NCBI GenBank assembly: GCA_964585295.1
Contig: CAZPCY010000003.1
Location: 66,990 to 130,989, forward strand
Direction: 5' to 3'
Length of the DNA stretch: 64,000 nt
DNA from: an uncultured Candidatus Poseidoniales archaeon
Lineage (GTDB): Archaea > Thermoplasmatota > Poseidoniia > Poseidoniales > Thalassarchaeaceae
Shown here: piece by piece, positions 28,187-54,100 of the stretch
Layout of the letters: each line of letters opens with the position of its first letter
Position numbering within the stretch: position 1 is the first letter of the stretch
The notes under the pieces: model-generated
What the model saw: the letters and a program-made list of their open reading frames with translations, nothing else
Databases searched by the model: none
What the model was told of the DNA's origin: nothing
Translations under genes and position numbers: made by a program

Positions 28187-31100
28187 TCACCTCATCCCTC
28201 CGCCGCGGCTCTTGCCGACCGGAGCCATACTCTGCGCTCCGGAGCCGCGTGGTGGAGCCGGCATCATAGGTGCGCCACGGCCCTTACCATGAGGTTGTGC
28301 GCGTGCTTCCGGTGGAGGTGAAGCTGGACCCGACCGTTGCCTCTGCGGCGTCATCATCCCCTCATACGAGGTCCGTGTGTTCTGCTTCATCTTCCGTTGC
28401 AGGCGGAGTTCGGATTCCTCCTTCGCGGCGCCGCGGCGCATCATCCCGACCACTAACAATCCCATGGTGATCAAGGAGACCAATCCGATGGCGGCGGGCA
28501 ATCCATACTCCAGCAAGACATCCGCCTCGATCGCGTCGGGATCGATTAACAGCATGGTCGATGACTCCACCGCCGCCGGCTCGTCTGAGCCTGCATCCCT
28601 AGCCGAGATGGTCGTGTCTAACTCACCGGGTTCCGCCGAGGTGACGCGTCCGGTGAAAATCACAGTCGAGGTAGCGCCTTCGGTGCCGGCAGCCCCGAGT
28701 TCCACAGTCTGCACGGAGATGGGTGCTATCACTCCCTTTGGCACGGTCCATTCCACGGTTATGGTGAGTGGCACATCACCCGGATTAGTAAGCGTGCAGG
28801 TGACCTCGAACTCGCCACTGTCCGAGATGTTCTCTGCTATCGAATCGGGGGAGCAAGTCATGGTAATCTCCGCTTGGTTCCGCTCAGAATCGTCAGGCCA
28901 CCGGTCTGGGTCGACTGCACCAGGGGCGGTATTGTCGCCGTAGCCATCGCCGTCAGCATCCGTCCACTGTGTGGGCTCGTTCGGGAAGGAGTCCTGCGAA
29001 TCGGCGTAACCATCGGAGTCAGAATCAGCGCAGCCGAGGACTTCCCCCTCCGTGCTACTTCCATGCTCATCCGGGCAATCATCTCCCATCGTTCCCAGCG
29101 GGTCGTCACCGAATCCATCGAAGTCGGAGTCGGAATGCTGTGTGGCGTCCATCGGGAGGAAGTCGCCGGCATCCGACCAGCCGTCAGCATCCGTGTCTAG
29201 ACAGCCAAGAACATCGGCACTGGAATTGCCCGCAGTACTCGGGCAGTAATCCGGTGAGAAGCCGTTCGGATTGTCTCCATAGCCGTCTCCATCGCTGTCG
29301 TTCCACTGCGAGGCGTCATCGTCGAACGCATCCGCATCGTTCGACCAACCATCACCATCACCATCGGCGCATCCGCGTTTGTCGTGGAAGCTCGTGCCGG
29401 GCGTAGATAGGCAGTCATCAGCGCTGTTGCCGGTCGTGTTATCCCCATACCCATCGGCGTCGCTGTCCATCCACTGGGTCTCATCACCAGGGAATGCATC
29501 AGCGCCATCGGCGACCGTCCAAGAGGCGGACGGGTCGCTCCTGCCATCGCCATCAGTGTCGGGACAGCCAATCCGATCGGCTGTCGAAGTTCCTGAATGA
29601 GCCGGACAGGCATCGGCTGAATCCCCAACACCATCGCCGTCTACATCACTAGAGTGACCAGGGTCATTCGGCAGCGCGTCATCCGAATCTCGCACACCGT
29701 CTCCATCCGAGTCCGGACAACCGAATGCACCGATGGTGGAATTGCCCGCTTCGGTCGGGCAGGAATCGGGTTGCGTGCCGGTCGGCGAGTCACCGTAGCC
29801 GTCGCCGTCCGTGTCGGCGCTCTGCGAGGCGTCGTTCGGGAAGTCATCGGAACCATCTCCCACCCCGTCCCCATCACCGTCCGTCGTCTCATTGGCGTCA
29901 TTCGGGAAGTCGTCGTTTGGATCTGTCACGCCATCGCCGTCCGAATCGTCAATGCATCCGTCGGCGTCCTGATCCCATCCGCTGGAGTTCTCCGTTGGAC
30001 AGGAGTCGATGTCGTTGCCGATGCCATCTCCGTCGCCATCGTCGATGCAGCCATCCTGATTCGCATCCCATCCGGTCGAGGAGATGGTAGGACAGGCATC
30101 CGAGTTGTCGCCTATCGAGTCGCCATCCGTGTCGGCCCATTCGGAGGAATCTGAGATGAAGGCGTCGTTGGCATCGCTCTGTCCATCGCCGTCGGAATCA
30201 ACGCACCCGAATCGGTCCAGGGTCGAATTCCCCACCGTCGTTGGGCAGGCGTCTCCTTGGGCACCGGCGGCATTGTCGCCGAATCCATCACCGTCCGCAT
30301 CCGCCCACTGTGTGGGCTCGTTCGGCAGTGCATCGGCGCCGTCGGAAGTAGTCCAGTTCGTGTCGGAATTCGATCGTCCGTCGCCATCTGAGTCGACGCA
30401 ACCTGAGCGGTCGACGCTTGAGTTACCCACTACCGATGGACAGTCATCTCCGTCCACACCGGTATCGTTGTCCCCAAATCCGTCGCCATCGCTGTCGGCG
30501 TGCTGGGTGCCTTCGTTCGGGAAGTGGTCCTGATCGTCGGCCCACCCATCACCATCTCCGTCGAGGCAGCCCAAGGTGCCGTTCTGGGTCGAAGTCCCAG
30601 ATATGGTCGGGCAGTCATCAGCATCGGTGCCGCTCGAATTATCTCCGTATCCGTCACCGTCGGTATCGTTCCATTGGCTGTCGTCGTTGGGCAGCACATC
30701 GTGGTCGTCAGCCCAGCCATCGGAGTCCGAGTCGGCGCATCCTAGGATGGGATGGGTGGAATCGCCTGTCACCGTCGGACATCCGTCGGGCGAATTGCCG
30801 GAAGAGTTGTCTCCAAATCCATCGCCATCCGAATCGATGTACTGGGAGGAATCGGTCGGGAATGCATCAGCGCCATCAGACACGGTCCAGCCGCCGTCGG
30901 CGTCGGACCAACCGTCATCGTCGCTGTCGATACAGCCGTTGCGATCCTCCGACGAGTTCCCCGCGGTGGAGCCGCATGAGTCGGCGCCGTCGGAGGTGCT
31001 CCAGACAGCATCCACATCCGACCAGCCATCGGAATCCGAGTCCGGACATCCTTGTCTGTCGATGGTCGATGTGCCGACCGTTGCGGTGCAATCGTCGGAA

Positions 31101-33577
31101 TCGCTGCCGGTCGGATTGTCGCCGAAGCCATCGAAGTCAGCGTCCGCCCATTGGGTCGCATCGTTAGCGAACGCGTCGGCGCCGTCGTTTACCGTCCATC
31201 CCGAGTCTGGATTTGAGCGACCATCGCCATCCGAGTCCGTGCAGCCGGCGCGATCGATGGTCGAGGTACCGGAGATGCTTGGACAATCATCCGCTCCATC
31301 GATGAATCCGTCGCCATCGGCATCGGCGCTAATGTTCGTCATCGCGAGGCTGCGCGACAAGGCGAGCGCGAAGTGCTGAGGGCCAACCGCCACAGAGGTG
31401 CCAACGACGTGTACCTCCCAAGTGCCGCTGGATGGATTGGAGAGGATCTCTCCCACGAGGTTGTCTCGGTCGTTTGAGACATTTGTCCAAGTGCCATCAG
31501 GTGCCTTCAGGTGGAGGTCGAGATCGTTGACTAGATGGTTGCTGACGGAAGGGGTCGATTCAGGATCGGTCCACGATAGCACCACACGGAGATCGGAAGT
31601 CCCGGAAGGAACAGTGAAGCGGAACGCTCGCTCCTCGTTCGTAGAGACGGTCTCACCTTCGATCCAACTGCCATTCATCATGGTCGACATGTTCACCCGA
31701 CCCCATCCCTCGTGGTCGTTGGGAGCGTCCTCTCCTGCGCCGTTGGTACTCGACGAATACTGTCCAGCCATGTCGCTCGCACCTGCGGTGAAAATCGCCT
31801 TTACTAGGGCCGATGAAGGGTCGGTGTGATTCTCGTTCTCGATCAGATGCTCCAGCAGTAGTGCGGTGGCCCCGGCTGTGAGTGGAGTGGCCATCGAGGT
31901 CCCTCCCATGTAGGTGTACGAGGAGTTGTAAGCGAGCCATCCGGTGTCGCTGGTCGATCGCGATTTGGTGGAGAGGATGAAGGTCCCAGGAGCTGAGACT
32001 TCAGGCTTCAGGCGCTGGTCATCGGTCGGGCCTCGGCTTGAGAAAGCCGCCATCCCTTCCGGATGGCCTGTGTTGTCATCGCTCCTGATTGGCTCAGCAT
32101 ATTCGGAACCCCACGACCCTGGGTAGTAGCAGCTGCCATCACCTTGGCAGAGGACCGTTCTGCCGTTCTCCGATGCACCTACCGTAAGCACGTTCTTGGC
32201 GGTCGCAGGAGCGCCCAAGGAATCCAGATCTATCTCGCCATCCTGATTCCCGTCAGCGCCTTCGTTGGCGGCGGCGAAGAGGACGGTCAGATTGCGGTGC
32301 ACCCTAGCGCCAATGTCAGCCTGCATCGAAGTCGATGTGTACTGGCCGGCGACATCACTGCCCCACGAATTCGTGTGGACGCGGCTGCCATTCGCCACCG
32401 CGTCGTCGTACATGTGGGAAAGATTGGATGGAAAGCCGATTAGGTAGGATTTACCATCCCGGTTGCAATAGATGTCGACGGCTTGGAAGACGAGGTGTGC
32501 TTCGGTCGCGGAGCCGATGATGCTGCCACCGGAATCAGTGCCGTCACCGAGGACCGAACCGGCGACGTGGGTTCCATGTCCATCGATATCGGATGCACCA
32601 TCGTTGGCGTTGCCTCCACAGTAGTTGTGGTTGCCTTGACTCATCGAATAGGAGACGATGCCTGTGATATGGTCGCGCAAGTCGGGGTGCATGTTGCTGT
32701 TGTTGACGCCGTTGTCCAGACCGGTGTCTGCCACGGTTACCGTGATGCCGCTTCCGTCCAATCCATTCCAAGACGAGTCGAGACCCTGCATGTTGCTGGT
32801 TGACTCTACCCAATCGACCTCCATCACCTCGCGGCCGACGTCGTTGAAAGTGCGCCGTTCGAACGACGGCTCGATGAACTCGACCTCATCGAGGGTCGAG
32901 AGGTGAGCGATTCCACGAGTCGTCGCATCTACGCTGATGAAGCGGTCATCGTGTGACAGGATACTGACCGAACCTAGTGGGGCACCGTACAAGTCTGGCG
33001 CTTCCTCGCCGGACAGAACCAAGGTGAAGACACCGCGGCCGCGCTCGTGCAGCCTCGCTTCGTACTCGCCAAGCAGAGCGGCGGCGGTCCACTCGTGCAT
33101 GCGATCGATCGGATCGAAGCGCGCCATCGCGATGACTCCGGAATCAGCGAGTTCAGTCGAGCGATGGCCCGAAAGCAAGCAGTGGAATGACTGCGGTGGA
33201 ATGAACGAACGACACTCGATGCCGACGGATTGGAGTTCTCCTTTCCACTCGGTGGGAACAGGGGCCTCATGCGCTAGGATCATCCAACCGTCGAGAGCGC
33301 CGTTCCCGAACGAGGAGCGCCAATCCCGCTGCTGCACGAGAATTGAATCGCGGTGTCGAAGATGAGCGACGACTGACCCCTCCTCCTTCTCACCCCAACC
33401 GTGCTCGGCATCGCCGATTGGCTCCACGCCGATGGCGCGCAGTGAATCAAGATCGATGTTCGGTTCAATCGTCGACCCAGAGCCATCTGAACCAGCAGCC
33501 AGCGCTGGCGCGAGAGGTTGGATCAGCATCAGGAGAGTGAGCGTCAGGCATCTGGCGGTCGTTGCGCGGGTGAACAT
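28187..33577 (-). CDS. secreted subtilisin-like serine peptidase (S8) with long array of thrombospondin type-3 Ca-binding repeats, C-terminal TM anchor and P/G/R-rich tail
   Basis: Signal peptide 'MFTRATTARCLTLTLLMLIQPLAPALAAG'. S8 catalytic-triad motifs 'VTVADTGLD', 'HGTHVAGSV' and 'GGTSMATPLTAGATALL'. More than 25 repeats of the form 'DSDGDGxxDxxDxFPND'. A hydrophobic helix near the C-terminus is followed by 'RRGAAKEE...' and a Pro/Gly/Arg-rich tail. Confidence 0.8.
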   Translation of the reverse strand: MFTRATTARCLTLTLLMLIQPLAPALAAGSDGSGSTIEPNIDLDSLRAIGVEPIGDAEHGWGEKEEGSVVAHLRHRDSILVQQRDWRSSFGNGALDGWMILAHEAPVPTEWKGELQSVGIECRSFIPPQSFHCLLSGHRSTELADSGVIAMARFDPIDRMHEWTAAALLGEYEARLHERGRGVFTLVLSGEEAPDLYGAPLGSVSILSHDDRFISVDATTRGIAHLSTLDEVEFIEPSFERRTFNDVGREVMEVDWVESTSNMQGLDSSWNGLDGSGITVTVADTGLDNGVNNSNMHPDLRDHITGIVSYSMSQGNHNYCGGNANDGASDIDGHGTHVAGSVLGDGTDSGGSIIGSATEAHLVFQAVDIYCNRDGKSYLIGFPSNLSHMYDDAVANGSRVHTNSWGSDVAGQYTSTSMQADIGARVHRNLTVLFAAANEGADGNQDGEIDLDSLGAPATAKNVLTVGASENGRTVLCQGDGSCYYPGSWGSEYAEPIRSDDNTGHPEGMAAFSSRGPTDDQRLKPEVSAPGTFILSTKSRSTSDTGWLAYNSSYTYMGGTSMATPLTAGATALLLEHLIENENHTDPSSALVKAIFTAGASDMAGQYSSSTNGAGEDAPNDHEGWGRVNMSTMMNGSWIEGETVSTNEERAFRFTVPSGTSDLRVVLSWTDPESTPSVSNHLVNDLDLHLKAPDGTWTNVSNDRDNLVGEILSNPSSGTWEVHVVGTSVAVGPQHFALALSRSLAMTNISADADGDGFIDGADDCPSISGTSTIDRAGCTDSDGDGRSNPDSGWTVNDGADAFANDATQWADADFDGFGDNPTGSDSDDCTATVGTSTIDRQGCPDSDSDGWSDVDAVWSTSDGADSCGSTAGNSSEDRNGCIDSDDDGWSDADGGWTVSDGADAFPTDSSQYIDSDGDGFGDNSSGNSPDGCPTVTGDSTHPILGCADSDSDGWADDHDVLPNDDSQWNDTDGDGYGDNSSGTDADDCPTISGTSTQNGTLGCLDGDGDGWADDQDHFPNEGTQHADSDGDGFGDNDTGVDGDDCPSVVGNSSVDRSGCVDSDGDGRSNSDTNWTTSDGADALPNEPTQWADADGDGFGDNAAGAQGDACPTTVGNSTLDRFGCVDSDGDGQSDANDAFISDSSEWADTDGDSIGDNSDACPTISSTGWDANQDGCIDDGDGDGIGNDIDSCPTENSSGWDQDADGCIDDSDGDGVTDPNDDFPNDANETTDGDGDGVGDGSDDFPNDASQSADTDGDGYGDSPTGTQPDSCPTEAGNSTIGAFGCPDSDGDGVRDSDDALPNDPGHSSDVDGDGVGDSADACPAHSGTSTADRIGCPDTDGDGRSDPSASWTVADGADAFPGDETQWMDSDADGYGDNTTGNSADDCLSTPGTSFHDKRGCADGDGDGWSNDADAFDDDASQWNDSDGDGYGDNPNGFSPDYCPSTAGNSSADVLGCLDTDADGWSDAGDFLPMDATQHSDSDFDGFGDDPLGTMGDDCPDEHGSSTEGEVLGCADSDSDGYADSQDSFPNEPTQWTDADGDGYGDNTAPGAVDPDRWPDDSERNQAEITMTCSPDSIAENISDSGEFEVTCTLTNPGDVPLTITVEWTVPKGVIAPISVQTVELGAAGTEGATSTVIFTGRVTSAEPGELDTTISARDAGSDEPAAVESSTMLLIDPDAIEADVLLEYGLPAAIGLVSLITMGLLVVGMMRRGAAKEESELRLQRKMKQNTRTSYEGMMTPQRQRSGPASPPPEARAQPHGKGRGAPMMPAPPRGSGAQSMAPVGKSRGGGMR

Positions 33578-33719: not shown

Positions 33720-35021
33720 CTAGAATAGAAGGAAAGGACGGCGGCAATCGAGCGCCCTCCTGATGCCAGAGGTTCCGAGCATTCGGAGACCTGCCTCGAC
33801 CAGCGCATCCGTCCGACCGAATGTCCAGAAGAGCCGCTTGGTTCGCAGGCTATTGCGCAAGGATTGCCCGAAGGTCGTACGCAGTCGCTCGCTGTAGGAG
33901 ATGAGGGGCGTACCGGATTGTCGAGCCGAGATCACCGCCTCGGCGGCCATCATCCCAGATGCCATCGCTTGACCAATTCCCCCGCCGTTTGAAGGCATCA
34001 CCAGTCCGGCCGCATCTCCTACGGAGAGGACGTTTCTATGGACGGGGTCACTAATCGGGCCACCCATCGGTATGTACCCCCCACCGTAGGAGAGGATGGT
34101 GACCCCCAGAGTGTTGCAGAACGCTTCGAGCAGTTCCTTCAGAGGCCTCTGAACGGCGCCCATCCTGATTCCGAGTCCGACGTTGGCCATCCCATCCTTC
34201 GGAATGATCCAAGCGTACCCACCCGGTGCGAATCCACCGATGAACACATCGAACGAGGGTGGGAGATCGCCGGACACCTGAGCATAGATCGAGGGGAGTA
34301 GATTTGGTGGTCGATCCTCGACTCCAAGTAGTCGACGGACATGGCCGAGAGATCCTGAGGCATCGATGATGTGGTCAGCGGTGTAGCGAGAGCAATTCGT
34401 CACGTAGACATCCGGCGAGCGCTCCCGCCGGTTCAGGACATTCTGCAACGGCTCCCCTAGCCGAATCTCGGCCCCGGCTCGCCGCGCCAATTCGGTCAGA
34501 TGCCCATCGAATTGGAGGCGGTGTGCACTGTAACAGTCGAGTTCGAATGCGTAGGCCTTCATCCTAGGAGTGAAAACCCGCATCCAATCCAGTCTTCTGC
34601 TCAGGATGTGCGAAGGGTATCGGAAGCGCTCGGCGAGCCAATCTTCCCGCTCCAGCATGGGGAAGGTCTCCGTCATCTCCCCCCAACCAGGGATACACTC
34701 CCCGCATTGAGCGGGGTTGCCTGAGATGGCGCGCTTCTCCAGAACGAGGACATCGACTCCCTCTTCGGCGAGGCGCTCCGCTGCGATTGAACCTCCAGGT
34801 CCAGCACCGATGATCAGAACCTCACGATGTTCGATGGACCGACGCTTGGCACCGGTTCGACCATCACTCTGAGGTTGACCTGGCTCGGAGTCAGACGGAT
34901 CTGGGCCATTGGCAACCCCACCTGCAAGAACCATCGCTTCCGGAATTTCGGCAGGACCGATTTCCTCGTTGGACTCATGGAGGGCGGTGGCACCCTCCAT
35001 CGAATCACGACCTTCGCCCAA
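33720..35021 (-). CDS. geranylgeranyl reductase family (digeranylgeranylglycerophospholipid reductase-like), FAD-dependent
   Basis: 'VLIIGAGPGGSIAAERLA' dinucleotide fold, 'NPAQCGECIPGW' (the CGE motif of archaeal GGRs) and 'GDAAGLVMPSNGGGIGQAMASG'. The true start is probably internal to the ORF-track call. Confidence 0.75.
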   Translation of the reverse strand: MGEGRDSMEGATALHESNEEIGPAEIPEAMVLAGGVANGPDPSDSEPGQPQSDGRTGAKRRSIEHREVLIIGAGPGGSIAAERLAEEGVDVLVLEKRAISGNPAQCGECIPGWGEMTETFPMLEREDWLAERFRYPSHILSRRLDWMRVFTPRMKAYAFELDCYSAHRLQFDGHLTELARRAGAEIRLGEPLQNVLNRRERSPDVYVTNCSRYTADHIIDASGSLGHVRRLLGVEDRPPNLLPSIYAQVSGDLPPSFDVFIGGFAPGGYAWIIPKDGMANVGLGIRMGAVQRPLKELLEAFCNTLGVTILSYGGGYIPMGGPISDPVHRNVLSVGDAAGLVMPSNGGGIGQAMASGMMAAEAVISARQSGTPLISYSERLRTTFGQSLRNSLRTKRLFWTFGRTDALVEAGLRMLGTSGIRRALDCRRPFLLF

Positions 35022-37272: not shown

Positions 37273-37280
37273 ATACATTT
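37273..37280 (+). promoter_or_regulatory. TATA-like element (TATACATT) ~38 bp upstream of ATG 37315, followed by GGAGGG
   Basis: Seen in sequence. The spacing is compatible with a short 5' UTR carrying an SD-like element. Confidence 0.3.
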
Positions 37281-37314
37281 GCAGCGAAGGCGACCGAGCG
37301 AGGAGGGATCGACC

Positions 37315-38997
37315 ATGATGATCGACTCAGTGCTACTCCACCACCTGCACACGGCGAAATTGCAGGACCTTCGGGACTTGGCGACCAAGCACGAAATCAG
37401 CCGTCAGGGGAATCTAGAGATTCTGCGCGCACGACTAATCTCCAACCTCGTGCTGACTGGGGTGGATCTCTCTTGGGAGGGAATCCAAGAGATGTCGAAC
37501 GCAGACCTTGGAGAGGTGCTCAAGGTCCTCGGAGTGAAGAGCAGCGGGGCCCAGAAGATGAGGCGGAGAAGACTGTGGCTGCACCTGAACCACGATCCGA
37601 AGAAGCTCACCGTCGATTCACTAGGAGAAATGACTCGTGACGATCTGCACGAGATGTGCATCCGTTTGGAACTCGCCCGCTCTGGGAACAAGAATCAACT
37701 CCTAGTCAGGGTGGCAGGTGTGCTCACCGCACAAGAGGGTGGTTGGGGCCGAATCAAGAAGAGTCTGAAGCGGGCGGCAGCGCCGGTGGTCGAAGCGAAC
37801 ATCGAAGCAGCAGCAGTGACCCATGATGATGTAGAAGCCGCTGAAGCCTACGTAGAGGCAGTCGAAGAACACGTGGCATCCAATGAACCGGAAGCAATTG
37901 CCGAGGAAGAACGCGTGGTGGAATCGATTGAGATTCCCGAGGAGGAACCTGAAGAGGCAGACTCGTCTCCGACTCCTACCACTCTCGACGAGGGAGCTGG
38001 TACCGCATTGTTGACATTGGAGTCTCGGAGAGCAGAGTTACACGCTCTGATTAGGGATTTCCTGCTGCTCTCCGATATCCCTTCTCCGGGAGATATTACA
38101 GCATTCGTAGAGGACCTAGGATCGCACGGCTTCGGAGTCCAGCACGAGAGTGTCCGGGAAGCTGTTCTAGCAGATATCGAGCGGATGGCGGCCCGCAAGG
38201 CGGATGAGAGGGACGCTCAGGCCGTAATTCCCGGAACATGGCGCGAACGGCGAGCGTTGCGCCGGCTGGAGGAGGTGCGAGCCGGCCTGCTCGATTCATT
38301 GGAGGCGATTCTCGCCGATACGGAGGGAGACCTAGCACTCGCCCGCACCCGATTTGAACAGGCGGCCGCGAAAGCTGGCCTTGATCTAGACCTACCAGCA
38401 ATCAGCGGCCGCATCCACGGCTTGTTCGATCTTCAGGTCTCGCTCCGTGAGGTCGAAGCGGATGCCGACCCGGTAGCGCATCGCCGCGAGAGAGCCATCC
38501 GGGTGCTCTTCAGGCAGGTCGACGCACTGGATGCGTCGGCACGACGGACCCTAGAGCGTATCGAGCAGCAGATCGAATCGATTGAACGGGTAATCGAGAC
38601 CGTGATTCGCCGTAACGAAGGGCGTTTCGATTCTCTCGAGCAGGCGCTCTTCATCCGCTTCCTTGAACGGAGGGGATGGGATGCAAACCATCCAGAGGTG
38701 CGACCTCGACTCATCGCTGCCGCTGGAATTCTGGCGACCCACATGGGTTACCTTGAACCCGATGAGGCCCCGACCCTTCCGAGCCAATTGGCCCTCGATC
38801 CCGACCGAGTTGGCGATGTGGTCGAGAACCTGCGAGACGTCCTCAGCGAATTCGGTCGCGCGCCTACCGAGGAAGAGGCGCTGAAGACGCCGGAAGAGCG
38901 CGCGGCGGATGCTGAGCAGCCTAGCGTTGATAGAGCGAGGCGCGGGCTCGACGCGGCCGACTCCGTGCTGTCCCGCTTGCAGAGGATGACAGAGTAA
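37315..38997 (+). CDS. protein with three N-terminal SAP-like (helix-extended-helix) DNA-binding motifs followed by an acidic coiled-coil region
   Basis: 'LQDLRDLATKHEISRQGNLEILRARLISNL', 'LGEVLKVLGVKSSGAQKMRRRRLWLHL' and 'LHEMCIRLELARSGNKNQLLVRVAGVL' each fit the SAP pattern (L..L.V.ELR..L...GL...G.K..LI.RL). The remaining ~400 aa are E/A/R-rich helical. ATG-ATG at 37315 is preferred over the ORF-track TTG start at 37279. Confidence 0.45.
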   Translation: MMIDSVLLHHLHTAKLQDLRDLATKHEISRQGNLEILRARLISNLVLTGVDLSWEGIQEMSNADLGEVLKVLGVKSSGAQKMRRRRLWLHLNHDPKKLTVDSLGEMTRDDLHEMCIRLELARSGNKNQLLVRVAGVLTAQEGGWGRIKKSLKRAAAPVVEANIEAAAVTHDDVEAAEAYVEAVEEHVASNEPEAIAEEERVVESIEIPEEEPEEADSSPTPTTLDEGAGTALLTLESRRAELHALIRDFLLLSDIPSPGDITAFVEDLGSHGFGVQHESVREAVLADIERMAARKADERDAQAVIPGTWRERRALRRLEEVRAGLLDSLEAILADTEGDLALARTRFEQAAAKAGLDLDLPAISGRIHGLFDLQVSLREVEADADPVAHRRERAIRVLFRQVDALDASARRTLERIEQQIESIERVIETVIRRNEGRFDSLEQALFIRFLERRGWDANHPEVRPRLIAAAGILATHMGYLEPDEAPTLPSQLALDPDRVGDVVENLRDVLSEFGRAPTEEEALKTPEERAADAEQPSVDRARRGLDAADSVLSRLQRMTE

Positions 38998-39001
38998 CCG
39001 G

Positions 39002-40249
39002 TCATTCCATGGTGGCGAAGTATCCTTGGATGACCTTCGTGACCTGCTCGATCTCACGGACGTCTCTGCGAGCTAAATCCGTGAGGATTTGTTCCCTCTG
39101 TCGGACATACGCCTCAAAGTCGGCCGGCCTGCATCCCTTCGCTTCACAGATAATCTCTCGGAGCTTGCTCGGCACGCCAGTCTCGACAATCTTGCCCTCC
39201 GAGGCGTCGAATCTCCAAATTGGGTTGAGCCTTGGGGTATCCCCCTCCATTCCTGCTATCTCGGCCACTTCGGTGATGCGGCGGATGTTCTTGCCGCCAA
39301 CATTCAGCCTCGCCTGCATGATAATCAGGTCAAGGGCGCTCAGCATGATCGAAGGCACGCTCATCGGAGGGTTCACCAGTCGCTTCACAGTCTCCGACGC
39401 CGTGTTGGCGTGAAGGCTTCCGAAGGAGCCGTCGTGACCGGTGTTCATCGCCATCAGCAGAGTCCCAGCCTCAGGGCCACGCACCTCACCGACGATGACG
39501 CGGTCCGGGCGCATGCGAAGGCTCGACTTGAGGCAGTTGTCCATCCCAATCTCGGTGGTTCCGTCAGGCCTCTCCGCCCTAGTCTCCATCCGCAGCCAGT
39601 GATCATGGTAGATCTGCAACTCAGCGGTATCCTCCACCGACAGAACTCTGTCGGACCATGGGACGAACATGCCAAGACAGTTCAGGGTGGTAGTCTTACC
39701 GGAACCGGTTCCGCCGGCGATGACGAAGTTCGCCGGCTTGGCACCGAGGCCGTCCACCCAACACCAGAACATCGCGGCGAGTCTAGGTGAGACCGTTCCC
39801 CATTTGATGAGGTCTACCATCGTAATCGGGTCTTCCTTGAACTTCCTGATGGTCAGGGTGGGTCCGTCCGGGGATACCGGAGGGATGGTGCCATTCACAC
39901 GCGAACCATCGGGGAGACGGCCGTCGAATATTGGGACCATGCCAGGACCATCGCCTAGTGGGACAGCGGTGAAGGATGCAATGTTCTTGGAGATCTGCAT
40001 CCCCTCATCGTCCTCGATCCAAATGTTGGTCCTGCACATGCCATGTTTGCGGTGGGCAATCTTCACGCACTGAGTCCCACCATTGTACATCACCTCTTCA
40101 AGAGAGTCGTCCTCAAGCAATGCTGAGAGTGCTCCATACTCGTTGGGAGGGATATCATCCCCAAACTCGTAGAAGGGGGTGGGGTGTCCTGGCTCTCTGT
40201 AGATTGTGACTGCTCCGTATTGATCGATTATCTCTGCCATTCCATTCAC
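39002..40249 (-). CDS. type II/IV secretion-system ATPase (TadA/CpaF/FlaI/VirB11 family)
   Basis: Walker A 'IAGGTGSGKTTTLNCL', Asp box, Walker B 'RVIVGEVRGPEA' and His box 'MAMNTGHDGSFGSLHANTASE'. 415 aa. GTG start, with an in-frame ATG 9 nt downstream. Confidence 0.85.
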   Translation of the reverse strand: MNGMAEIIDQYGAVTIYREPGHPTPFYEFGDDIPPNEYGALSALLEDDSLEEVMYNGGTQCVKIAHRKHGMCRTNIWIEDDEGMQISKNIASFTAVPLGDGPGMVPIFDGRLPDGSRVNGTIPPVSPDGPTLTIRKFKEDPITMVDLIKWGTVSPRLAAMFWCWVDGLGAKPANFVIAGGTGSGKTTTLNCLGMFVPWSDRVLSVEDTAELQIYHDHWLRMETRAERPDGTTEIGMDNCLKSSLRMRPDRVIVGEVRGPEAGTLLMAMNTGHDGSFGSLHANTASETVKRLVNPPMSVPSIMLSALDLIIMQARLNVGGKNIRRITEVAEIAGMEGDTPRLNPIWRFDASEGKIVETGVPSKLREIICEAKGCRPADFEAYVRQREQILTDLARRDVREIEQVTKVIQGYFATME

Positions 40250-40250
40250 C

Positions 40251-40988
40251 TCATCCCAGACTCGAACCGAGCCCCATGTAGACGCCGAGGAAGATTGCGG
40301 TCGAAGCTGCCATCCATGCCGGCATAATCCACAGGTAGGCGCGCATGCGGCCGAGCATTCGGCCGCAAATCGCGACGGTTATCCCGGATGCGGCCGCGCA
40401 AAACAACTCGACCGAATCGAGAACCGCATCGACTGGGAAGCCCTTCTTAGGACCAGCGAAGACGCCGACGATGAAGCCAGCGATCGCCGGCAGCATCAGC
40501 CCCATCAACACGAGCATCGTGAAAGCCTGACCGAACACCTTACTCTCACGTTCGTTCATCAACTGGTTGAGACGTTCGTATTCCATGCTCATTCGGAAGG
40601 ATACATCCTTCATAGGCGCGTTCTGCTCCATCGAAGTCGATAGGAGATTGACGATCCTCTGAGCCATCATCGATCTGGTTTCCAGAGCGAACTTGGCGAG
40701 CGCTGCATCGAAGGAGGCGGCCTCGCTCCTCTCAATCGCGGCGCTGAGCAATTTGCCGGTGATGTCGGTGCGCGACTTCGCGACTTCGGATAGCGCCTGT
40801 TCGACACCTAGTCCGGCACCGATAGCGCCGGAGATCGACTCCAGAACCTCGGGCATTGCGGTCTCAATCGCACGGCGGCGGCGGCGCTCAAAGAATTGCG
40901 GGACGGCGCCACCGGAACAGGCAATCGCGAGCGGCATCAACAGCAGCAGAGTGCCGTTGTCATTCAGTGTCTCTAGATATCCCCACAT
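40251..40988 (-). CDS. T2SSF-domain membrane protein (TadC/FlaJ-like, C-terminal half)
   Basis: N-terminal TM helix, a cytoplasmic T2SSF-like segment ('MPEVLESISGAIGAGLGVEQALSEVAK') and C-terminal TM helices. Confidence 0.55.
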   Translation of the reverse strand: MWGYLETLNDNGTLLLLMPLAIACSGGAVPQFFERRRRRAIETAMPEVLESISGAIGAGLGVEQALSEVAKSRTDITGKLLSAAIERSEAASFDAALAKFALETRSMMAQRIVNLLSTSMEQNAPMKDVSFRMSMEYERLNQLMNERESKVFGQAFTMLVLMGLMLPAIAGFIVGVFAGPKKGFPVDAVLDSVELFCAAASGITVAICGRMLGRMRAYLWIMPAWMAASTAIFLGVYMGLGSSLG

Positions 40989-40997
40989 GCCAACACC

Positions 40998-41582
40998 TCA
41001 GATGCCAGGATCCTGCGTATGCGCCTTCATCCCCACTAGACACATCAGAAGCAGTGAGAAGAACAATCCCCCGGCGCTTACAAGGTTCATCGTGCCAGCA
41101 TCCGGCACTGAGACCCCAATCGCTGACATCGCCGTCGGATCGAAGAGATAGGGTAGAACTCCCATGAGTGGTAGAACGATAGGTGCGAGCATGCCAACCG
41201 TCAGCAAAGTCTCCGGCATCCCCGAGAGGGTCTCGATGTACTTCTCCAAGCGCTGATTCCGCTCCTCCTCCTCACGCTCCGCTTGTCGGCGCAGCGCTTC
41301 GATCAAATCGGTGTTAGATGTGACATTGGAGCGCATGGTCTGCACGAGTCGCTTGTATCCGTTCGACTTCGTCTTCGTGGCGGCCATCTGCAATTGGTCC
41401 TCCAGCTTCTTGCCCGCTCGAACCTCGTCGATAATCATCGAGAAGTCTTCACTGATCGCTCCGTAACCGCCGCGAGCAATGTTGATGATGACCGATTCCA
41501 ATCCTATTCCTGCGCCGAGCAGCACGTCCATCGCGCGCAATGCATAGAGGAGATCCTTGTCCTCCTTTGCGATCGCCCCCAT
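40998..41582 (-). CDS. T2SSF-domain membrane protein (TadB/FlaJ-like, N-terminal half)
   Basis: 'LLYALRAMDVLLGAGIGLESVIINIA...' T2SSF domain followed by TM helices. It ends at a TGA that is in frame with, and 9 nt upstream of, the next ORF's ATG. Confidence 0.55.
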   Translation of the reverse strand: MGAIAKEDKDLLYALRAMDVLLGAGIGLESVIINIARGGYGAISEDFSMIIDEVRAGKKLEDQLQMAATKTKSNGYKRLVQTMRSNVTSNTDLIEALRRQAEREEEERNQRLEKYIETLSGMPETLLTVGMLAPIVLPLMGVLPYLFDPTAMSAIGVSVPDAGTMNLVSAGGLFFSLLLMCLVGMKAHTQDPGI

Positions 41583-41598
41583 GCCACTCGCCTCCCGT

Positions 41599-41943
41599 TC
41601 AGATTATGTCCTCGATGAGCACCATCTTGAACTCCCCGGTGCCCGCGTCGTACTCGATCTCGGAAATCGCGGCCTTCATCTCACGGTCGAGGAACGGATC
41701 GATGAAATGAGGCTGGCCCGCGCGGAAGATGGATTCCAACTTCTTGTAGCCAATCTCGTCGACGTTCAGGCGAATCGTGTAGACGGCGGACTCGGAGCCT
41801 TCGTCCTCGAGATCGTCGCCTTCGCCGCCGCGCTCGACGGTCCTCTGTAGACGTCGCTTGATCGATATGTGGACATGGCAGCCATCCAACTGCACCCATT
41901 CGCCGTCGCCTGACCGGATGTAGCAGGTCAGTTCGCGGACCAT
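41599..41943 (-). CDS. hypothetical soluble protein (114 aa), first gene of the Tad-like cluster
   Basis: No TM helix, signal peptide or recognisable motif; it is not pilin-like. Confidence 0.3.
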   Translation of the reverse strand: MVRELTCYIRSGDGEWVQLDGCHVHISIKRRLQRTVERGGEGDDLEDEGSESAVYTIRLNVDEIGYKKLESIFRAGQPHFIDPFLDREMKAAISEIEYDAGTGEFKMVLIEDII

Positions 41944-42004
41944 GGGAGACCGGCCACGAGGGTGGTCGCGACGTGCTTCAACGTATCGACGTACGGGGAA
42001 GCCC

Positions 42005-42997
42005 TCAAGGTGTCAATTGGAACCAGCCGAAGCTCGGTTCCATAATCTCTGCCCGTTCGTCCCGAAGATCGTCTATCGCATCCTCGAAGACCTGCAACGG
42101 GATGCCTTGCGAGGTGCAAGCGTGTCGCAGGGCGTCGTAGTGCACTCCTTCACCTTGGTCACCGGCCCGAATCGCCCCTAGTATGATGTCATCTATATCG
42201 GCTGAGGCGGGCGGTTCAGAGAGTTCTGGTTCGCTCTCTGATGGTGCAGAATCGTAGCCTGCGAGACCGCTCTCTTGGTCATTGCCTTCATCCTCATCGA
42301 CGCTCGGAGCGCTGACGTCTTCCGCTCGGCCGGATGCCATCGCCAAGGCGTGCAAGACGCCGACTCGGTACGACTCGGCGTCGAAGGGCCCGTAGTGGCC
42401 ACGAGCCGAGATCAAGCCGTCGAGGAGATCTTCGGGAACTCCCGCCGCCCGCATCGAATCCCTGTCTGAATCGGCATCGGATGCACGCTCCTGAGCGTCG
42501 ATCCTGCGGAGGGTTGCATCGGCTGCGTCTGCCAACCAGCATGCATATCGCGACCTGTCGATGACTCTCATTGACTCGGTACGGACGCTGGTGTATACCG
42601 AGCCCTCGTCATTGGTCCAGTGTCTGGCACGCCCCATCATTAGCATCAGGAAGCGATCGCCTCGCTCGAATCTGGCGAGCAGTTCCTCGGCATCGCCGTG
42701 GAGTTCCGGCTGGAAGTGGCCGATGTCGAACATGTGCACTCCGGTCGGATCTCGGAGTTGGCCTCGATAGGTAGGACCGCTTTCGCCGTCTCGCCTCTCC
42801 ATCCGATCGATTACGCCGGCGACCATCATCCGAGACACCCTCGCTCCGAGTTTCGTGACGATGAAAGTAGGGTCGTACTGCCCCTCCCCCCCCTCCGGCA
42901 GGGTCGCCTGCGCGTACTCAAGTGCGAAGAGGTGGATGGAAGGCTGCCGGCGACGGCTTTGAGCCTCGCTGACGGTCACAGAACCACCTCCCAGCAC
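42005..42997 (-). CDS. RPA-associated protein / RPA32-like (OB fold plus C-terminal winged helix)
   Basis: N-terminal OB-fold-like 'YDPTFIVTKLGARVSRMMVAGVIDRMERRDGESGPTYRGQLRDPTGVHMFDIGHF'. C-terminal 'GVHYDALRHACTSQGIPLQVFEDAIDDLRDERAEIMEP' resembles the RPA32 wH domain. It lies immediately downstream of rpa, overlapping by 22 nt, as in euryarchaeal rpa-rpap operons. Confidence 0.5.
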   Translation of the reverse strand: MLGGGSVTVSEAQSRRRQPSIHLFALEYAQATLPEGGEGQYDPTFIVTKLGARVSRMMVAGVIDRMERRDGESGPTYRGQLRDPTGVHMFDIGHFQPELHGDAEELLARFERGDRFLMLMMGRARHWTNDEGSVYTSVRTESMRVIDRSRYACWLADAADATLRRIDAQERASDADSDRDSMRAAGVPEDLLDGLISARGHYGPFDAESYRVGVLHALAMASGRAEDVSAPSVDEDEGNDQESGLAGYDSAPSESEPELSEPPASADIDDIILGAIRAGDQGEGVHYDALRHACTSQGIPLQVFEDAIDDLRDERAEIMEPSFGWFQLTP

Positions 42998-44652
42998 TCC
43001 ATCACTGCAGCCGCTCTCGCTTCGCCGTCCATCTCCTTCCGCTCGATTCTATCAGCCAGCAGCATCACACCTCGATCATCGACTATGGCGCGCCCCCTAA
43101 TATCGACCGATGTTCCGAACAAATCAGCTACTAGAGCCTCGTGGAAGGCGATGGGGCCACCATCATCGATGCGCGCCTTCACCTCGTCGAAACTCTCACC
43201 GAGATGACGCTCAGACGGCTCTCTTCCGAGCACCACGGATGCGGTGGACAAGCCGTCGTCGATGACCATACGCAATCGCAGATCCTCGTTGCCCTCGACG
43301 TGCCCGTGCTCGTGACAGGAGCCATCACGGAGGACCCGACGGCATTCCACACAACGGCGAACGATTCCACTGTCGTCCCGGACCAAAACGATGGTACCGC
43401 TGGTTCGGATGCCGCTGCGACTGCCACCAGACTCCAAATCGGATAGAGAGAGGTCGAACACGTGAGTCTCCGGGTCTATCTCATCCCACGGAGCGTCGGA
43501 GAGCACCTCAATTTGATCCTCTCGATCGACCGTAAGATCGGGAGTTCCCTGCCAAGCCCGCACGCGGACTCCGGAGAGACTCAAGAACGAGCCTGAATCG
43601 ATTCCCGCATCGCACCATACCGTCATCCGGCAGCGGCCGGTGGGGTCGATCACCTCGCCGCTCCAGAGCGAACGATCGTTGCCCTCGTCATCTTGGAAGG
43701 TCCGTTGTGTCAGTGATTCCACTTGGACGGTGACATGCACTTCCCTCATGCCGTCGCGGAGACCCGAGATCGTAGCCTGGGAGACCGACTCCAGAGATTC
43801 GGCGTCCGGGAACGCATTGTCGATGTAGACCTCGACCTTCGTGCGGTCGCCGATGTTAATCTCCGGTGTTTCCCTGAATCGCCGGATGCTGGCACCCTCT
43901 ATCCGTACCAGTTGCCCTTCTCCGTGCTCAAATGGACCCCAACAGGTGAAGCCGATCGAACCGGACTGGTCGGCGAGGCGTCCTCGAACGATGTCAATCG
44001 AGCCAGTGCCATCTCGCCGATGGATCACATCGGGCTTCGCGGAGAGGACGCGAGCGACGACCGAGACCATTCCCTGCATGTCGTGCACCGCTTCGATGCT
44101 GACCGGCTCTTCGGGGGCGATGACGGGCGCCGATCCCTCACGCAGGGTGGTGACGCGGCTGCCGCGATTCACATTGATTGAACGCTTGCCCTGCCACTCG
44201 TTGACCGAGACGCCTTCTAGGCGGACAATCGAGCCGGGCGTGAGTCGCGATGAGTGGTCGCCCCAATCTTTGAAGTCCCATCTCGTCCTCTCGCCGCCCT
44301 CGGTCCAAGGGCGATCCTCGATCCAACCGAAGGATATCTGACGCTCTTCGCCTCGCACCATCTGGACCCTCGGATTGCAGGTTATCACCTCCACCTCGAT
44401 GGTGACGTTGCGGTCGTCGGCTCCGAGGTCATCGAATCGTTCCACCTTCCTCTCTGTGGGAGCGCTCTGGCTAGGCATCTCCGGCTCGCTCGCTCCGGCG
44501 CTGAACTTCTTGGTGACGGAACGAATGGCGTCCTCAGGTGGAATGAGGAACTCCTCTCGATATCGGATGAACTCCGCCCTAATCTCCTCCTTTGAGGCAT
44601 CTGGGCACGCCTCGGCCACAATCTCAACTTGGTGCTCCAATCCATCTTCCAT
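42976..44652 (-). CDS. rpa: replication protein A (multi-OB-fold ssDNA-binding protein with Cys3His zinc finger)
   Basis: Several OB-fold-sized blocks, plus 'RRCVECRRVLRDGSCHEHGH' (C-x2-C-x9-C-x2-H) as in archaeal/eukaryotic RPA70. The ORF track starts at 44838. The ATG at 44652 (MEDGLEHQ...) is preceded by GGAGGGA and removes a Pro-rich leader; which start is used is uncertain. Confidence 0.7.
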   Translation of the reverse strand: MEDGLEHQVEIVAEACPDASKEEIRAEFIRYREEFLIPPEDAIRSVTKKFSAGASEPEMPSQSAPTERKVERFDDLGADDRNVTIEVEVITCNPRVQMVRGEERQISFGWIEDRPWTEGGERTRWDFKDWGDHSSRLTPGSIVRLEGVSVNEWQGKRSINVNRGSRVTTLREGSAPVIAPEEPVSIEAVHDMQGMVSVVARVLSAKPDVIHRRDGTGSIDIVRGRLADQSGSIGFTCWGPFEHGEGQLVRIEGASIRRFRETPEINIGDRTKVEVYIDNAFPDAESLESVSQATISGLRDGMREVHVTVQVESLTQRTFQDDEGNDRSLWSGEVIDPTGRCRMTVWCDAGIDSGSFLSLSGVRVRAWQGTPDLTVDREDQIEVLSDAPWDEIDPETHVFDLSLSDLESGGSRSGIRTSGTIVLVRDDSGIVRRCVECRRVLRDGSCHEHGHVEGNEDLRLRMVIDDGLSTASVVLGREPSERHLGESFDEVKARIDDGGPIAFHEALVADLFGTSVDIRGRAIVDDRGVMLLADRIERKEMDGEARAAAVMECWEVVL

Positions 44653-44905
44653 CCGCGTTCTCCCTCCGGGTATTGAGGAGGCGTCAAGAGTGGTAGTCAT
44701 CCCGACATGCGCGGGCCGAGCGATCGCCTCTGTGAGGCGTTCCGGGGGACGGCTCGGCGTGCGGCTGGGGAAGACTTGGCACTCCATCACCTCCGGCTTT
44801 GGAGCAGCCTGTATCGACGGTTCTTGAACAATCGGCATCGATTCCCCTCAATGTGGCAATCCCCGGCGGCGGAGAGGTCATCATCCCGTAGCGAGTCGCC
44901 GCACC

Positions 44906-51158: not shown

Positions 51159-54100
51159 GTGCCGAAAGGACAGCACGCGACTGCGCTCGTCGCCCTATTG
51201 GTTCTCGCCCCCCTACTTGCTGCAACTGGCAGCACGCTGGCGAGCCCTGTCGACAAGAGCGGCGATGAGAGCTATCCTGGGACGAGCGGCGAACCGATAC
51301 CAACGAGCTACTACCCTATCGACGGACACGGAGTCAACGCAGCCAATCCAGAGTGGAACGCACAGAACTCCGATCTCGGGCGTAAGGTGCCATCGATGGC
51401 GGAGAACGGGTCGGGCCTAGCCTTCCCCGACCTTCCTTCGCCGAGAACAATCTCAAATGCCGTCTGCAGCCAACAGCAAGGACTGGTTCCCGACGAAACG
51501 GGCCTCTCCGACTACAACTGGCTCTGGGGACAGTTCATCACCCACGAAGTCGATTTCACATTGACGCAGAACGGCAGGGTGAGCGGCATCCCGGAGACCG
51601 CGAACATTCCGGTCGAGGCGCATGACCCGCACTTCGGAGCGCCGGCGGGGGGCGCCGCCTTGATCCCATTCTTCCGATCGCTGTACAACTCCTCGACCGG
51701 AGAGGACAGCAGTGATCCGCGGCAGCATCCAAACTCGGTCACCGGGTGGATAGACGGCTCGGTAATCTATGGTTCCAAGGACTCCGTCGCAAGTTGGCTT
51801 CGGACCGGCGAGAGTGGACGACTGAAGGTGAGCGAGGATGCCTACGGTCATCTGCTCCCAATCGCGGCGGATGATGACGACACTGCGCCTGGGATGAGTT
51901 TCGTCGGCTTCAGTGCCGATGTTCGTTACATCGCCGGTGATTCGCGCGCCAACGAGCACGCCTCCTTGATGGCTATCCATGTCCTGTTCGTGCGCGAGCA
52001 CAATAGACTGGCCGAGGAGATTCAAGAGCGCAATCCGGATTGGAACGACGAGCAGGTGTTCCAGCGTACTAGGAAGATCGTCACGGCGCTGATTCAGGTG
52101 GTTAACTACGAGGAGTTCCTTCCCTCTCTCGGCATCACCCTTCCGAACTACACCGGTTACGACGAAGCCATAGATCCGACGGTGACGAACTCGTTCGCCA
52201 CGGTAGCCTTCCGGATGGGACACAGCCAGATCGGCCCGATGGTCATGCGGTTGGAGGAGAACAGGACTCCGATCCCACAGGGCCATGTCCTGATGAAGGA
52301 CGCCTTCTGGAAGACCTCGGTCGTCACCGAGGGGGGTGGAATCGGTCCGCTGCTGCGCGGCTTGGCGTTCACCACCCAGGAAGCGAACGACATCTACTTC
52401 CACGACGATCTGCGAAACACCCTGTTTGGGATGCCGGGGGCTGGCGGTGCGGACCTATGCGCAATCGACATTCAGCGAGGACGCGACCACGGAGTCGCCG
52501 ACTACAACAGCCTGAGGGAGGTGATTGGCCTGCCAAAGGTCGGCAACTGGAGCGATGTGACCAGCGATGCCGAAGTAGAGTCCCGCCTCTCCTCTGTCTA
52601 CTCGGACTTGGATCGCGTGGACGGGCTCATGGGTATGCTGGCTGAGGATCATCTGAACGGCTCCGTCCTAGGACCGACCATGCACGCTCTGATCAAAGAT
52701 CAGTTCCTCAGACTCCGTGATGGAGACCCACTCTTCTACCTGAACGATCCGGAACTCACAGACATCGCCACGAACCTGACCGGCACCACGCTCGCCGAGA
52801 TCATTCTGCGAAACACTGAGATCGAGGCAATCCAGTGCAATGTCTTCTTCGCCGAGACGAACGGCTCCCGATTCGATTGCAACAACGCGAATCTTGAGAC
52901 GCCCCCATCCTATGCCGTCGATGGATCGACTGATTCGAATCCGGTCGTGGCGGAGTTTGGATTCACGGACGTCACCGCTTCTAGCGGGCTCTATGAGGTT
53001 GACTCTGGCCCGCTTACGGACTGGGCTGCGTATGGACCAAGCATCGCTTGGGGCGATTGCGACGGAGATCGTGATCAGGACGTCTTCATCGGCGCTCGCT
53101 TCGACCATCTGGGATGGGAGAGCGGAGAGACGACCACCGGCCTCAACCACCTGATGATCAATGACGGTGATTCCACCTTCAGCGACGGCACCACTGCCAG
53201 CGGCATCGCGGCGGATAACTCGACGACTCTGGGGGCTACCTGGGCCGACTACGACGATGACGGCGACCTTGACCTCTATCTGTCGAACTACGGAGTCGCT
53301 GACTTCGGTGACGATTACGCGACGAGCGGCGCTGCGAACCAACTCTACGAGAATGCCGGAGATTGCACTTTCACCGATGTGACAGAGTCGACCGGGGTTG
53401 GAAACCACGGCCATTCATCGGGCTCCGTCTGGGTAGACTTCGACCACGATGGCGACCTCGACCTCTACTCGTTGAACATCGGCATGATCGATGAGAACAA
53501 CACCGTGATTCGCTCCGCGACCAACATCCTCTATCGCAACCAACTGACTGAATCAGGGAGCCCGACCTTCATCGACTGGACGGATGAGGCTGGTGGACTC
53601 TACGGTCAACCGGAGCGAGCGAACAGCGACAACGACATCAAATATGGAGAACTGGAATCGATTGCACCGACCGCACCCCCCTCCCCTTCCGCGACTGCGG
53701 TCGTGAAGGAGTACCTAGGTCAGGAGGGGAAGGGAACCGGGGTCTCGTGGGCGGCTATTTGGTTCGACTACGACGGAGATGGTTGGGAGGACCTCTATGT
53801 CGCAAGCGACTTTGGCATCTCCCCCCTCTACAGGAATGATCGCGATGGCACCTTCACGTTGGTGACGTTTGAGGCTGACATGAAGGAGCCGGGGACGGGA
53901 ATGGGGGTGCATGCGGCAGATGTCGACGGGGATGGAGATCTCGATTTATGCCAATCCAACTTCGGTCCGAACTTCCTTTGGCGCAATGACGGAGATGGTA
54001 CATTCACTCAGGATGGAGTAAACTCCGGAATCCACGAGAATGTGCTAGTGAACTGGGACTGTCACTTCTACGACATCGACCTCGATCGCGATGCCGATCT

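Follow-up and report, generated by a model that had tools for sequence, protein, structure and literature searches.

The window analysed here is a 64,000-nucleotide (nt) stretch of contig CAZPCY010000003.1 from an uncultured Candidatus Poseidoniales (Marine Group II) archaeon. Its minus strand carries a run of six genes between positions 44838 and 39002, in which a gene for the large RPA subunit (rpa) and its partner gene (rpap) are followed by a gene for a 114-amino-acid (aa) soluble protein (s114), two genes for T2SSF-domain platform proteins (F1 and F2), and a gene for a T2SSE ATPase. On balance, it seems probable that the run comprises two units, namely an rpa-rpap pair and an independently promoted, minimal motor operon of the Epd-like/Tad lineage whose pilins and prepilin peptidase are encoded elsewhere. 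An earlier note on this DNA had described the same six genes, with gaps of at most 61 nt, and both the layout (from the open reading frames, ORFs) and the gene identities, including that of an RPA32-like rpap (from domain and profile matches), have been confirmed.

In the mechanism proposed, the first unit would be a translationally coupled rpa-rpap pair encoding the single-stranded DNA (ssDNA)-binding complex of the cell, and the second unit (s114, F1, F2, and the ATPase gene) would encode the assembly motor, in minimal form, of a type IV filament of the Epd-like/Tad lineage. If these proteins work as EpdL/EpdJ/EpdK and TadA/TadB/TadC do, a hexameric ATPase would drive a heteromeric platform of two one-domain T2SSF proteins, which would in turn pull class III signal-peptide proteins out of the membrane and polymerise them. 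The second unit would be transcribed from its own putative promoter in the spacer that follows rpap, while pilins and prepilin peptidase would be encoded at other loci, as is usual in this lineage. The position of the motor next to rpa-rpap would then be a Poseidoniales-specific arrangement within a larger conserved housekeeping block.

Each of the two platform genes encodes a single PF00482 domain. F1 (40998-41582, minus strand; 194 aa; 7e-16), which is TadC-like and of the N-terminal-repeat type, has two predicted transmembrane (TM) helices after a cytoplasmic T2SSF domain, and F2 (40251-40988, minus strand; 245 aa; 1e-5), which is TadB-like and of the C-terminal-repeat type, has a TM helix, the T2SSF domain, and further TM helices. 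F2 aligns with the second (C-terminal) repeat of ArlJ (residues 266-378 of 465) and of UpsF (283-381 of 484), F1 gives a weak match to the first (N-terminal) repeat of GspF, and the two proteins are 22% identical over the T2SSF domain. Judged from these alignments, F1-F2 is the expected product of a gene fission, with the halves in ancestral order. According to Denise et al. (PMC6668835), Epd-like archaeal and bacterial Tad pili have two contiguous platform genes of one T2SSF domain each, which arose by fission of a two-domain gene, and 'system 1' is characterised by two platform genes in a 2026 preprint (10.64898/2026.04.22.720090). The earlier note had taken the split platform for an anomaly and one unsplit platform gene for the canonical archaeal state; the latter is too broad a statement, since two one-domain genes are the rule in, and define, the Epd-like/Tad clade (PMC6668835).

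The last gene of the operon (39002-40240, minus strand) encodes a T2SSE ATPase of Epd-like/Tad (CpaF-like) type. It matches PF00437 at 6e-39 and, among structures, CpaF (8rkd, 9e-67; the best PDB sequence match), afGspE (2e-65), and FlaI (5e-46). The ORF is 415 aa long, and translation probably starts at the ATG at 40240, which gives 412 aa, an alternative GTG start being located at 40249. Ten sequences were compared, and in all of them the Walker A motif GSGKTT, the Walker B region RPDR-VGEVRG, and the TGH...H box are unchanged. Homologues at 86-92% identity come from Poseidoniales/Thalassarchaeaceae metagenome-assembled genomes, and the orthologues are annotated by NCBI as 'CpaF family protein'. 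With regard to the archaellum, the ATPase scores 240 bits with the FlaI model (cut-off 550) and the ArlJ model yields 23 bits (cut-off 400), both too low for an archaellum assignment, and no archaellin or FlaF/G/H gene was found in the 64-kb window. The possibility of a decayed remnant was rejected, as the catalytic motifs show no damage and ATPase identity is 72-86% throughout the order.

Core identity of the ATPase is 52-55% to Methanobacterium, Thermococcus, and Hydrothermarchaeota sequences, 42-46% to bacterial CpaF, 39.5% to Archaeoglobus fulgidus GspE, and 33.8% to Sulfolobus acidocaldarius FlaI. The earlier note had proposed a phylogeny as a check on its class. In a neighbor-joining tree over 316 columns, in which EpdL, Halo, Aap, and Ups reference sequences are not represented, the clade of Poseidoniales and of the metagenomic loci L007 and L009 groups with Epd-like archaeal ATPases and bacterial CpaF, with afGspE and FlaI outside.

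Loci of relatives were obtained by a motif scan of genome contigs, which added ten Poseidoniales species among the matches listed. The order RPA, rpap, s114, F1, F2, ATPase, and then a convergent gene of ~570 aa is present in all 12 other Poseidoniales loci with enough flanking sequence (L001, L004, L010-L013, L015-L017, L019, L020, and, from rpap onward, L014), and a thirteenth locus, L018, reaches no further than F1. Two loci are named Poseidoniaceae and one Thalassarchaeaceae, the others having been placed in family-like groups by similarity and pilin presence, and both families appear to be represented among the 12. The adjacency to RPA, which had been noted as unusual with a check of neighbourhood conservation suggested, is therefore not a one-off. 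Identity to the window across the order is 72-86% for the ATPase, 43-53% for RPA, 35-49% for rpap, 41-62% for s114, 40-62% for F1, and 39-58% for F2; by this measure, the motor ATPase is under by far the strongest constraint (72-86% versus 35-62% for its five neighbours). The flank upstream of RPA differs between locus groups, with an AstE-like gene in one and PmbA/TldD in the other, and the downstream flank (the convergent SAP-like gene, polyprenyl synthetase, and geranylgeranyl reductase) is common to both. The RPA-motor pair therefore sits within a larger conserved block, some of whose genes are plainly unrelated.

Outside the order, the metagenomic sister loci L007-L009 have an ATPase ~54% identical to that of the window and keep the T2SSF-T2SSF-ATPase order, with neither RPA nor s114 beside the motor. 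The next relatives, at 48-55% core identity, come from Hydrothermarchaeota, Thermococcus, Methanobacterium, and an unclassified archaeon, and have the ATPase first wherever a platform gene was found. The ATPase-last order, which the earlier note had contrasted with canonical archaeal type IV pilus and archaellum loci, is real, and is shared with L007-L009 alone among the matches listed. Short Flp/Epd-type pilin genes lie just 3′ of the platform genes in L021 and L025. The Hydrothermarchaeota locus L021 also has tandem ATPase copies (767-1894 and 2405-3532), followed by platform genes and two 69-aa Flp/Epd-type pilin genes in what is the canonical layout of the clade, and in L009 a third, partial T2SSF-like ORF (2-415) is located upstream of the F1-F2-ATPase trio.

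The boundary between the two proposed units falls in the spacer between rpap and s114 (41944-42004, minus strand). This is the sole long junction of the run, 54-75 nt in all 13 loci counting the window, while junctions within s114-F1-F2-ATPase range from -1 to 16 nt with a single 41-nt exception, each with a GAGG-type ribosome-binding site. In the window, rpa and rpap overlap by 22 nt, and the subsequent gaps are 61 nt (rpap-s114), 16 nt (s114-F1), 9 nt (F1-F2), and 1 or 10 nt (F2-ATPase, depending on the ATPase start). The spacers are unalignable except for an element, aACAYnTTSAAR, whose end lies 31-41 nt ahead of the s114 start in each of the 13 loci; it reads GATACGTTGAAGC in the window, where its TTGAAG (41976-41981) is 32 nt before the s114 ATG. 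Of the window genes, 21 have non-coding sequence upstream, and 6 of these have the pattern TT[CG]A[AT][AGT] at -50 to -21, compared with 1 of the 25 whose upstream sequence is coding, the background being 3.9% of random 30-nt windows. Given its conservation and its constant distance to the s114 start, the spacer element is read as a TATA-like box, which makes an internal promoter for the s114 operon likely.

The gene at the head of the motor operon, s114 (41599-41943, minus strand), encodes a soluble protein with no signal peptide, no TM segment, and no sequence-level match in Pfam, NCBIfam, PHROGs, or PDB. Its family is narrow, with 68 clusters out of 1.84 billion representatives, and has RGGEGDDLxDEGxESAVY as an invariant acidic loop. 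Two independent structure models agree on a predicted fold of the phage tail-tube/Hcp type, in which a beta-sandwich with a flanking helix and a long hairpin superposes on tube or Hcp proteins. The gene is first in the operon in all 12 other Poseidoniales loci reaching that far, among the matches listed, and is separated from F1 by 2-16 nt in 12 of 13 loci counting the window. Other Thermoplasmatota have distant homologues of 102-106 aa, encoded by stand-alone genes that in the loci examined never lie beside T2SSE, T2SSF, or RPA genes. Those of L091-L094 are located at 8001-8321, immediately after a ~1260-aa S8 peptidase gene in L092 and L093 and right after the gene for an 863-aa Big_13-like protein in L091, the large upstream proteins of these three loci being secreted. 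No other tail or injection-system genes were found near s114 or its homologues. By its predicted structure, s114 belongs to a small Thermoplasmatota family of stand-alone, 100-130-aa proteins of tail-tube/Hcp fold that is identified here; because its distant homologues stand alone, it is not an obligate partner of the motor across the phylum.

Two other roles for s114 have to be weighed. One is that of a third RPA subunit, equivalent to RPA14 in the Pyrococcus RPA41/32/14 trimer, given that s114 comes after rpa and an RPA32-like gene, has a size (114 aa) near that of RPA14, and follows a gene whose PDB matches are to the Pyrococcus abyssi trimer. However, the predicted tail-tube/Hcp fold is not an OB fold, which makes an RPA14-like role unlikely; moreover, 54-75 nt separate s114 from rpap, whereas it abuts F1, and its distant homologues do not lie beside RPA genes. 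This candidate is largely refuted by the non-OB fold of the models and the absence of a PDB sequence match, and it is most improbable. The other possibility is that the machine does not polymerise pilins and that its ATPase and platform work together with s114, which would be an element of a ring or tube, or else the chaperone of a secreted substrate. Its constant place at the head of the operon, close to F1, would suit such a role, as would the tail-tube fold predicted by both models, the lack of a pilin in the window and in Thalassarchaeaceae-like loci, an ATPase conservation unusually high for a pilus motor, and the position of distant homologues just 3′ of large secreted proteins in L091-L093. 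On the other hand, s114 lacks a signal peptide or TM segment, its distant homologues never adjoin T2SSE/T2SSF genes, the sister motor loci L007-L009 do not contain it, and no known motor of the type IV pilus (T4P) kind handles a soluble tube protein, so that this alternative is regarded as quite unlikely. In the reading of a minimal pilus motor operon behind an rpa-rpap pair, s114 might be a ring-forming accessory of the hexameric ATPase; this is a guess, and the weakest step of that reading.

The first unit resembles an ordinary archaeal RPA pair. The large RPA subunit with its OB folds (rpa, 42976-44652, minus strand) has an ORF that is open to 44838 and encodes 620 aa at full length; the true start is most likely the ATG at 44652 (M63), judging from the resulting length of 558 aa, the 556-568 aa of orthologues, and the upstream sequence, in which a TTGACG at about -36 is followed by the ribosome-binding site GGAGGGAG. 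RPA-family models match at 1e-79 to 1e-22, every one under its curated equivalog cut-off, including NCBIfam PRK07218 (1e-79; 268 bits, below the curated cut-off of 447). The 330-aa product of rpap (42005-42997, minus strand), an RPA32/Rpa2-like protein with an N-terminal OB fold and a C-terminal winged helix, has no match in Pfam or NCBIfam. A profile of 11 rpap orthologues matches P. abyssi RPA32 in PDB (9f26_C and 8oej_B; E 2e-6) over the start of the N-terminal OB fold and the C-terminal winged helix, and because both termini are matched the label of an RPA32-like rpap is correct. Over 12 loci, the RPA/rpap junction varies between an overlap of 22 nt and a gap of 2 nt, with an overlap in most. 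The pair thus consists of a multi-OB-fold RPA gene coupled to a partner gene with an OB fold and a winged helix, which is the mark of archaeal RPA-RPAP pairs; in Haloferax volcanii, such genes form the operons rpa1-rpap1-rpe and rpa3-rpap3 (PMC3376784). In the Poseidoniaceae-like loci L004, L010, L012, L013, L015, and L016, the non-coding sequence between the PmbA/TldD genes and rpa contains, some 50-90 nt before the RPA start, the conserved element AGTCTCAACCAAWCCGCACGAAARCCCGC and then a hairpin; a function as terminator, regulatory site, or small RNA is conceivable.

Regarding the substrate of the motor, a PilA-type gene (PF07790 Pilin_N; 163-172 aa; N-terminus EAVSPVIATVLLLAITV) is present in 9 of 9 Poseidoniaceae-like loci (L004 and L010-L017; e.g., L004 17204-17722), on the same strand and 6-7 kb downstream of the ATPase, beyond the lipid genes. 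Its product is put forward as a candidate motor substrate and as nothing firmer. In the counterpart region of the window, a gene for a 1796-aa S8 subtilase (28187-33577) comes after the geranylgeranyl reductase gene (33720-35021). It was reported that clade 1 major pilins are 'typically encoded by stand alone genes' (Makarova et al., PMC4858521) and that in Methanococcus maripaludis epdL with epdJ/epdK forms a locus apart from the pilin cluster (PMC4371748). The absence of pilins, which the earlier note had likewise treated as anomalous, is therefore usual here: a split platform and an absent pilin are both traits of the Epd-like/Tad lineage rather than anomalies (PMC6668835, PMC4858521, PMC4371748).

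Several observations count against the reading of two units with an Epd-like/Tad motor. Two regex screens of ORFs of at least 30 aa in the 64-kb window detected no class III signal peptides other than internal or antisense artefacts, a tblastn search of the window with a Poseidoniaceae pilin was negative, and Pfam scans of nearly all sizeable window ORFs gave no Peptidase_A24 or Pilin_N, so that the earlier statement that neither a pilin nor a prepilin peptidase is encoded in the window is upheld. The PilA-type gene is absent, at the place described, from the Thalassarchaeaceae-like loci and from the window. A second ATPase of the TadZ, MinD/FleN, or FlaH-like kind is found neither within nor beside the cluster in any of the 13 loci (window included), and the ATPase tree has no support values and a sample picked by motif search. 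The promoter, in addition, is called from its motif, and because the spacer of the window contains no oligo-T terminator, read-through from rpa-rpap is possible. Finally, adjacency of the two units is kept in 12 of 12 loci despite a changed upstream flank, which a functional link would explain too. The earlier note had reasoned that a separate promoter after rpap together with pilin genes outside the window would reduce the cluster to a conventional pilus locus that merely abuts rpa; half of this has been borne out, by the TATA-like element in all 13 loci and the PilA-type pilin in nine Poseidoniaceae-like loci, while near the Thalassarchaeaceae-like loci no such gene was found.

The same adjacency, on one strand and with no obvious terminator in the spacer of the window, would also be expected if the motor were functionally coupled to RPA, a possibility that the earlier note had raised as speculation. 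In that case, a competence-like machine for DNA uptake or transfer would pass incoming ssDNA to RPA-RPAP, and the six genes would be co-transcribed or co-regulated. It was reported that natural transformation of M. maripaludis requires Epd-type pili, with epdJ/K/L recovered in a transposon screen (PMC10133366), and that the ups pilus locus of Sulfolobales has DNA-processing genes tied to DNA exchange on its flanks (10.64898/2026.04.22.720090); the conserved convergent neighbour of the window, with its weak SAP-like DNA-binding motifs, points in the same direction. However, the sister loci L007-L009 have the same motor without RPA, the conserved promoter-like element divides the two units, and the RPA pair resembles the ordinary archaeal rpa-rpap/RPA32 pair. 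Because the block holds clearly unrelated housekeeping genes, synteny alone says little. No DNA channel, nuclease, DprA-like gene, ComEC, or CedA/CedB was detected in the window proteins scanned, although no targeted search was made. A coupling of this kind is considered unlikely, and DNA uptake as such is still conceivable because archaeal transformation needs Epd pili; the DNA-uptake channel of archaea is unknown (PMC10133366). A further, highly speculative and very unlikely combination would be a Poseidoniales-specific, pilin-independent machine, in which s114, with its predicted tail-tube/Hcp fold, would work with the Epd/Tad motor as a ring or conduit for DNA uptake or export, and hand-over of ssDNA to RPA would explain the linkage. 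The preferred interpretation is still that of an rpa-rpap pair followed by a separately promoted, minimal Epd-like/Tad motor operon.

The remainder of the window contains ordinary chromosome genes, such as those for SMC-ScpB, HMG-CoA reductase, the A/V-ATPase operon, polyprenyl synthetase, and geranylgeranyl reductase, as well as riboflavin genes and one tRNA. A viral origin of the cluster was rejected, as PHROGs gave no matches for s114 and the platform genes and generic P-loop matches alone for the ATPase, and as the setting beside SMC, V-ATPase, and lipid genes is chromosomal and syntenic. The ~570-aa convergent gene (37279-38997, plus strand) ends 4 nt from the ATPase stop and is present in every Poseidoniales locus recovered, at 37-54% identity; at the N-terminus of its product are weak SAP-like motifs (PF18953, E 0.0025), and the region after them is acidic and probably forms a coiled coil. 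At 51159-54728 (plus strand), a 1189-aa secreted protein is encoded that has an animal-type haem peroxidase domain (PF03098, 7e-135), FG-GAP repeats, an ASPIC/UnbV domain, and the N-terminus MPKGQHATALVALLVL; it occurs in L001-L003 too.

Poseidoniales, which are uncultured, reportedly outnumber all other planktonic archaea in surface oceans (PMC6461757), and the accessible parts of their genome surveys discuss solely the archaellum operon (PMC6461757, PMC6864105). Neither the presence of this module in Poseidoniales nor its link to RPA is mentioned in the available portions of the T4P surveys and of the Marine Group II genome surveys (PMC4858521, PMC6668835, PMC6461757, PMC6864105, 10.64898/2026.04.22.720090). 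Because the module is present in every locus recovered and its ATPase is far more conserved than the neighbouring genes, it would represent a core, uncharacterised surface/secretion motor of Poseidoniales. The Epd-like/Tad lineage would thus be extended to this order, with most of the apparent oddities of the cluster being traits of the lineage, and three features set the Poseidoniales variant apart, namely the final place of the ATPase gene (as also in L007-L009), the shortness of the ATPase, and the lack of a TadZ/MinD/FlaH-like partner. Its interest lies mostly in the ecological weight of the host and in the gene of predicted tail-tube fold that heads the operon.

Among known systems, the Epd pilus of M. 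maripaludis (EpdL/EpdJ/EpdK; type IV filament clade 1/system 1) shares with this cluster a single T2SSE ATPase gene contiguous with two platform genes and a core locus apart from the pilin and peptidase genes. In addition, the nearest ATPases outside Thermoplasmatota, among the matches listed, are those of Methanobacterium, Thermococcus, and Hydrothermarchaeota, the first two of which are clade 1 taxa (PMC4371748, PMC4858521). The differences are that the ATPase gene is last here but first in L021 and L023-L025 (the EpdL sequence itself being outside the comparison), that the ATPase is short (412 aa versus 543 aa in Methanobacterium), that the cluster has no MinD/FlaH-like second ATPase and is headed by a gene of predicted tail-tube fold, and that the host belongs to Poseidoniales, an order outside the coverage of the available parts of the T4P surveys. 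The bacterial Tad/Flp system (TadA/CpaF, TadB, and TadC) is similar in that CpaF is the best PDB match and in that its platform consists of two one-domain T2SSF proteins derived by fission (PMC6668835). However, Flp pilin, TadV, TadZ, secretin, and TadD-G genes are missing from the cluster, the order is platform-platform-ATPase instead of tadA-tadB-tadC, and the core identity to CpaF (42-46%) is below that to the archaeal relatives.

As in the archaeal rpa-rpap operons and the Pyrococcus RPA41/RPA32/RPA14 complex, an OB-fold RPA gene overlaps a downstream partner gene with an OB fold and a winged helix, but the third place here is occupied by neither the rpe phosphoesterase nor the OB-fold RPA14, and instead a spacer is followed by the gene of predicted tail-tube fold and a pilus motor. 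That a type IV pilus locus can be kept beside genes of DNA metabolism that share its role in DNA exchange is known from the Sulfolobales ups locus (10.64898/2026.04.22.720090), although this locus belongs to T4P clade 4, contains its pilins within the locus, is ultraviolet-inducible, and has a helicase and a nuclease, not RPA, as neighbours. With respect to phage tail tubes and the Hcp protein of the type VI secretion system, s114 differs in that it shows no detectable sequence similarity to them and has no sheath, baseplate, or other tail genes nearby, and in that it belongs to a vertically inherited chromosomal gene family of Thermoplasmatota.

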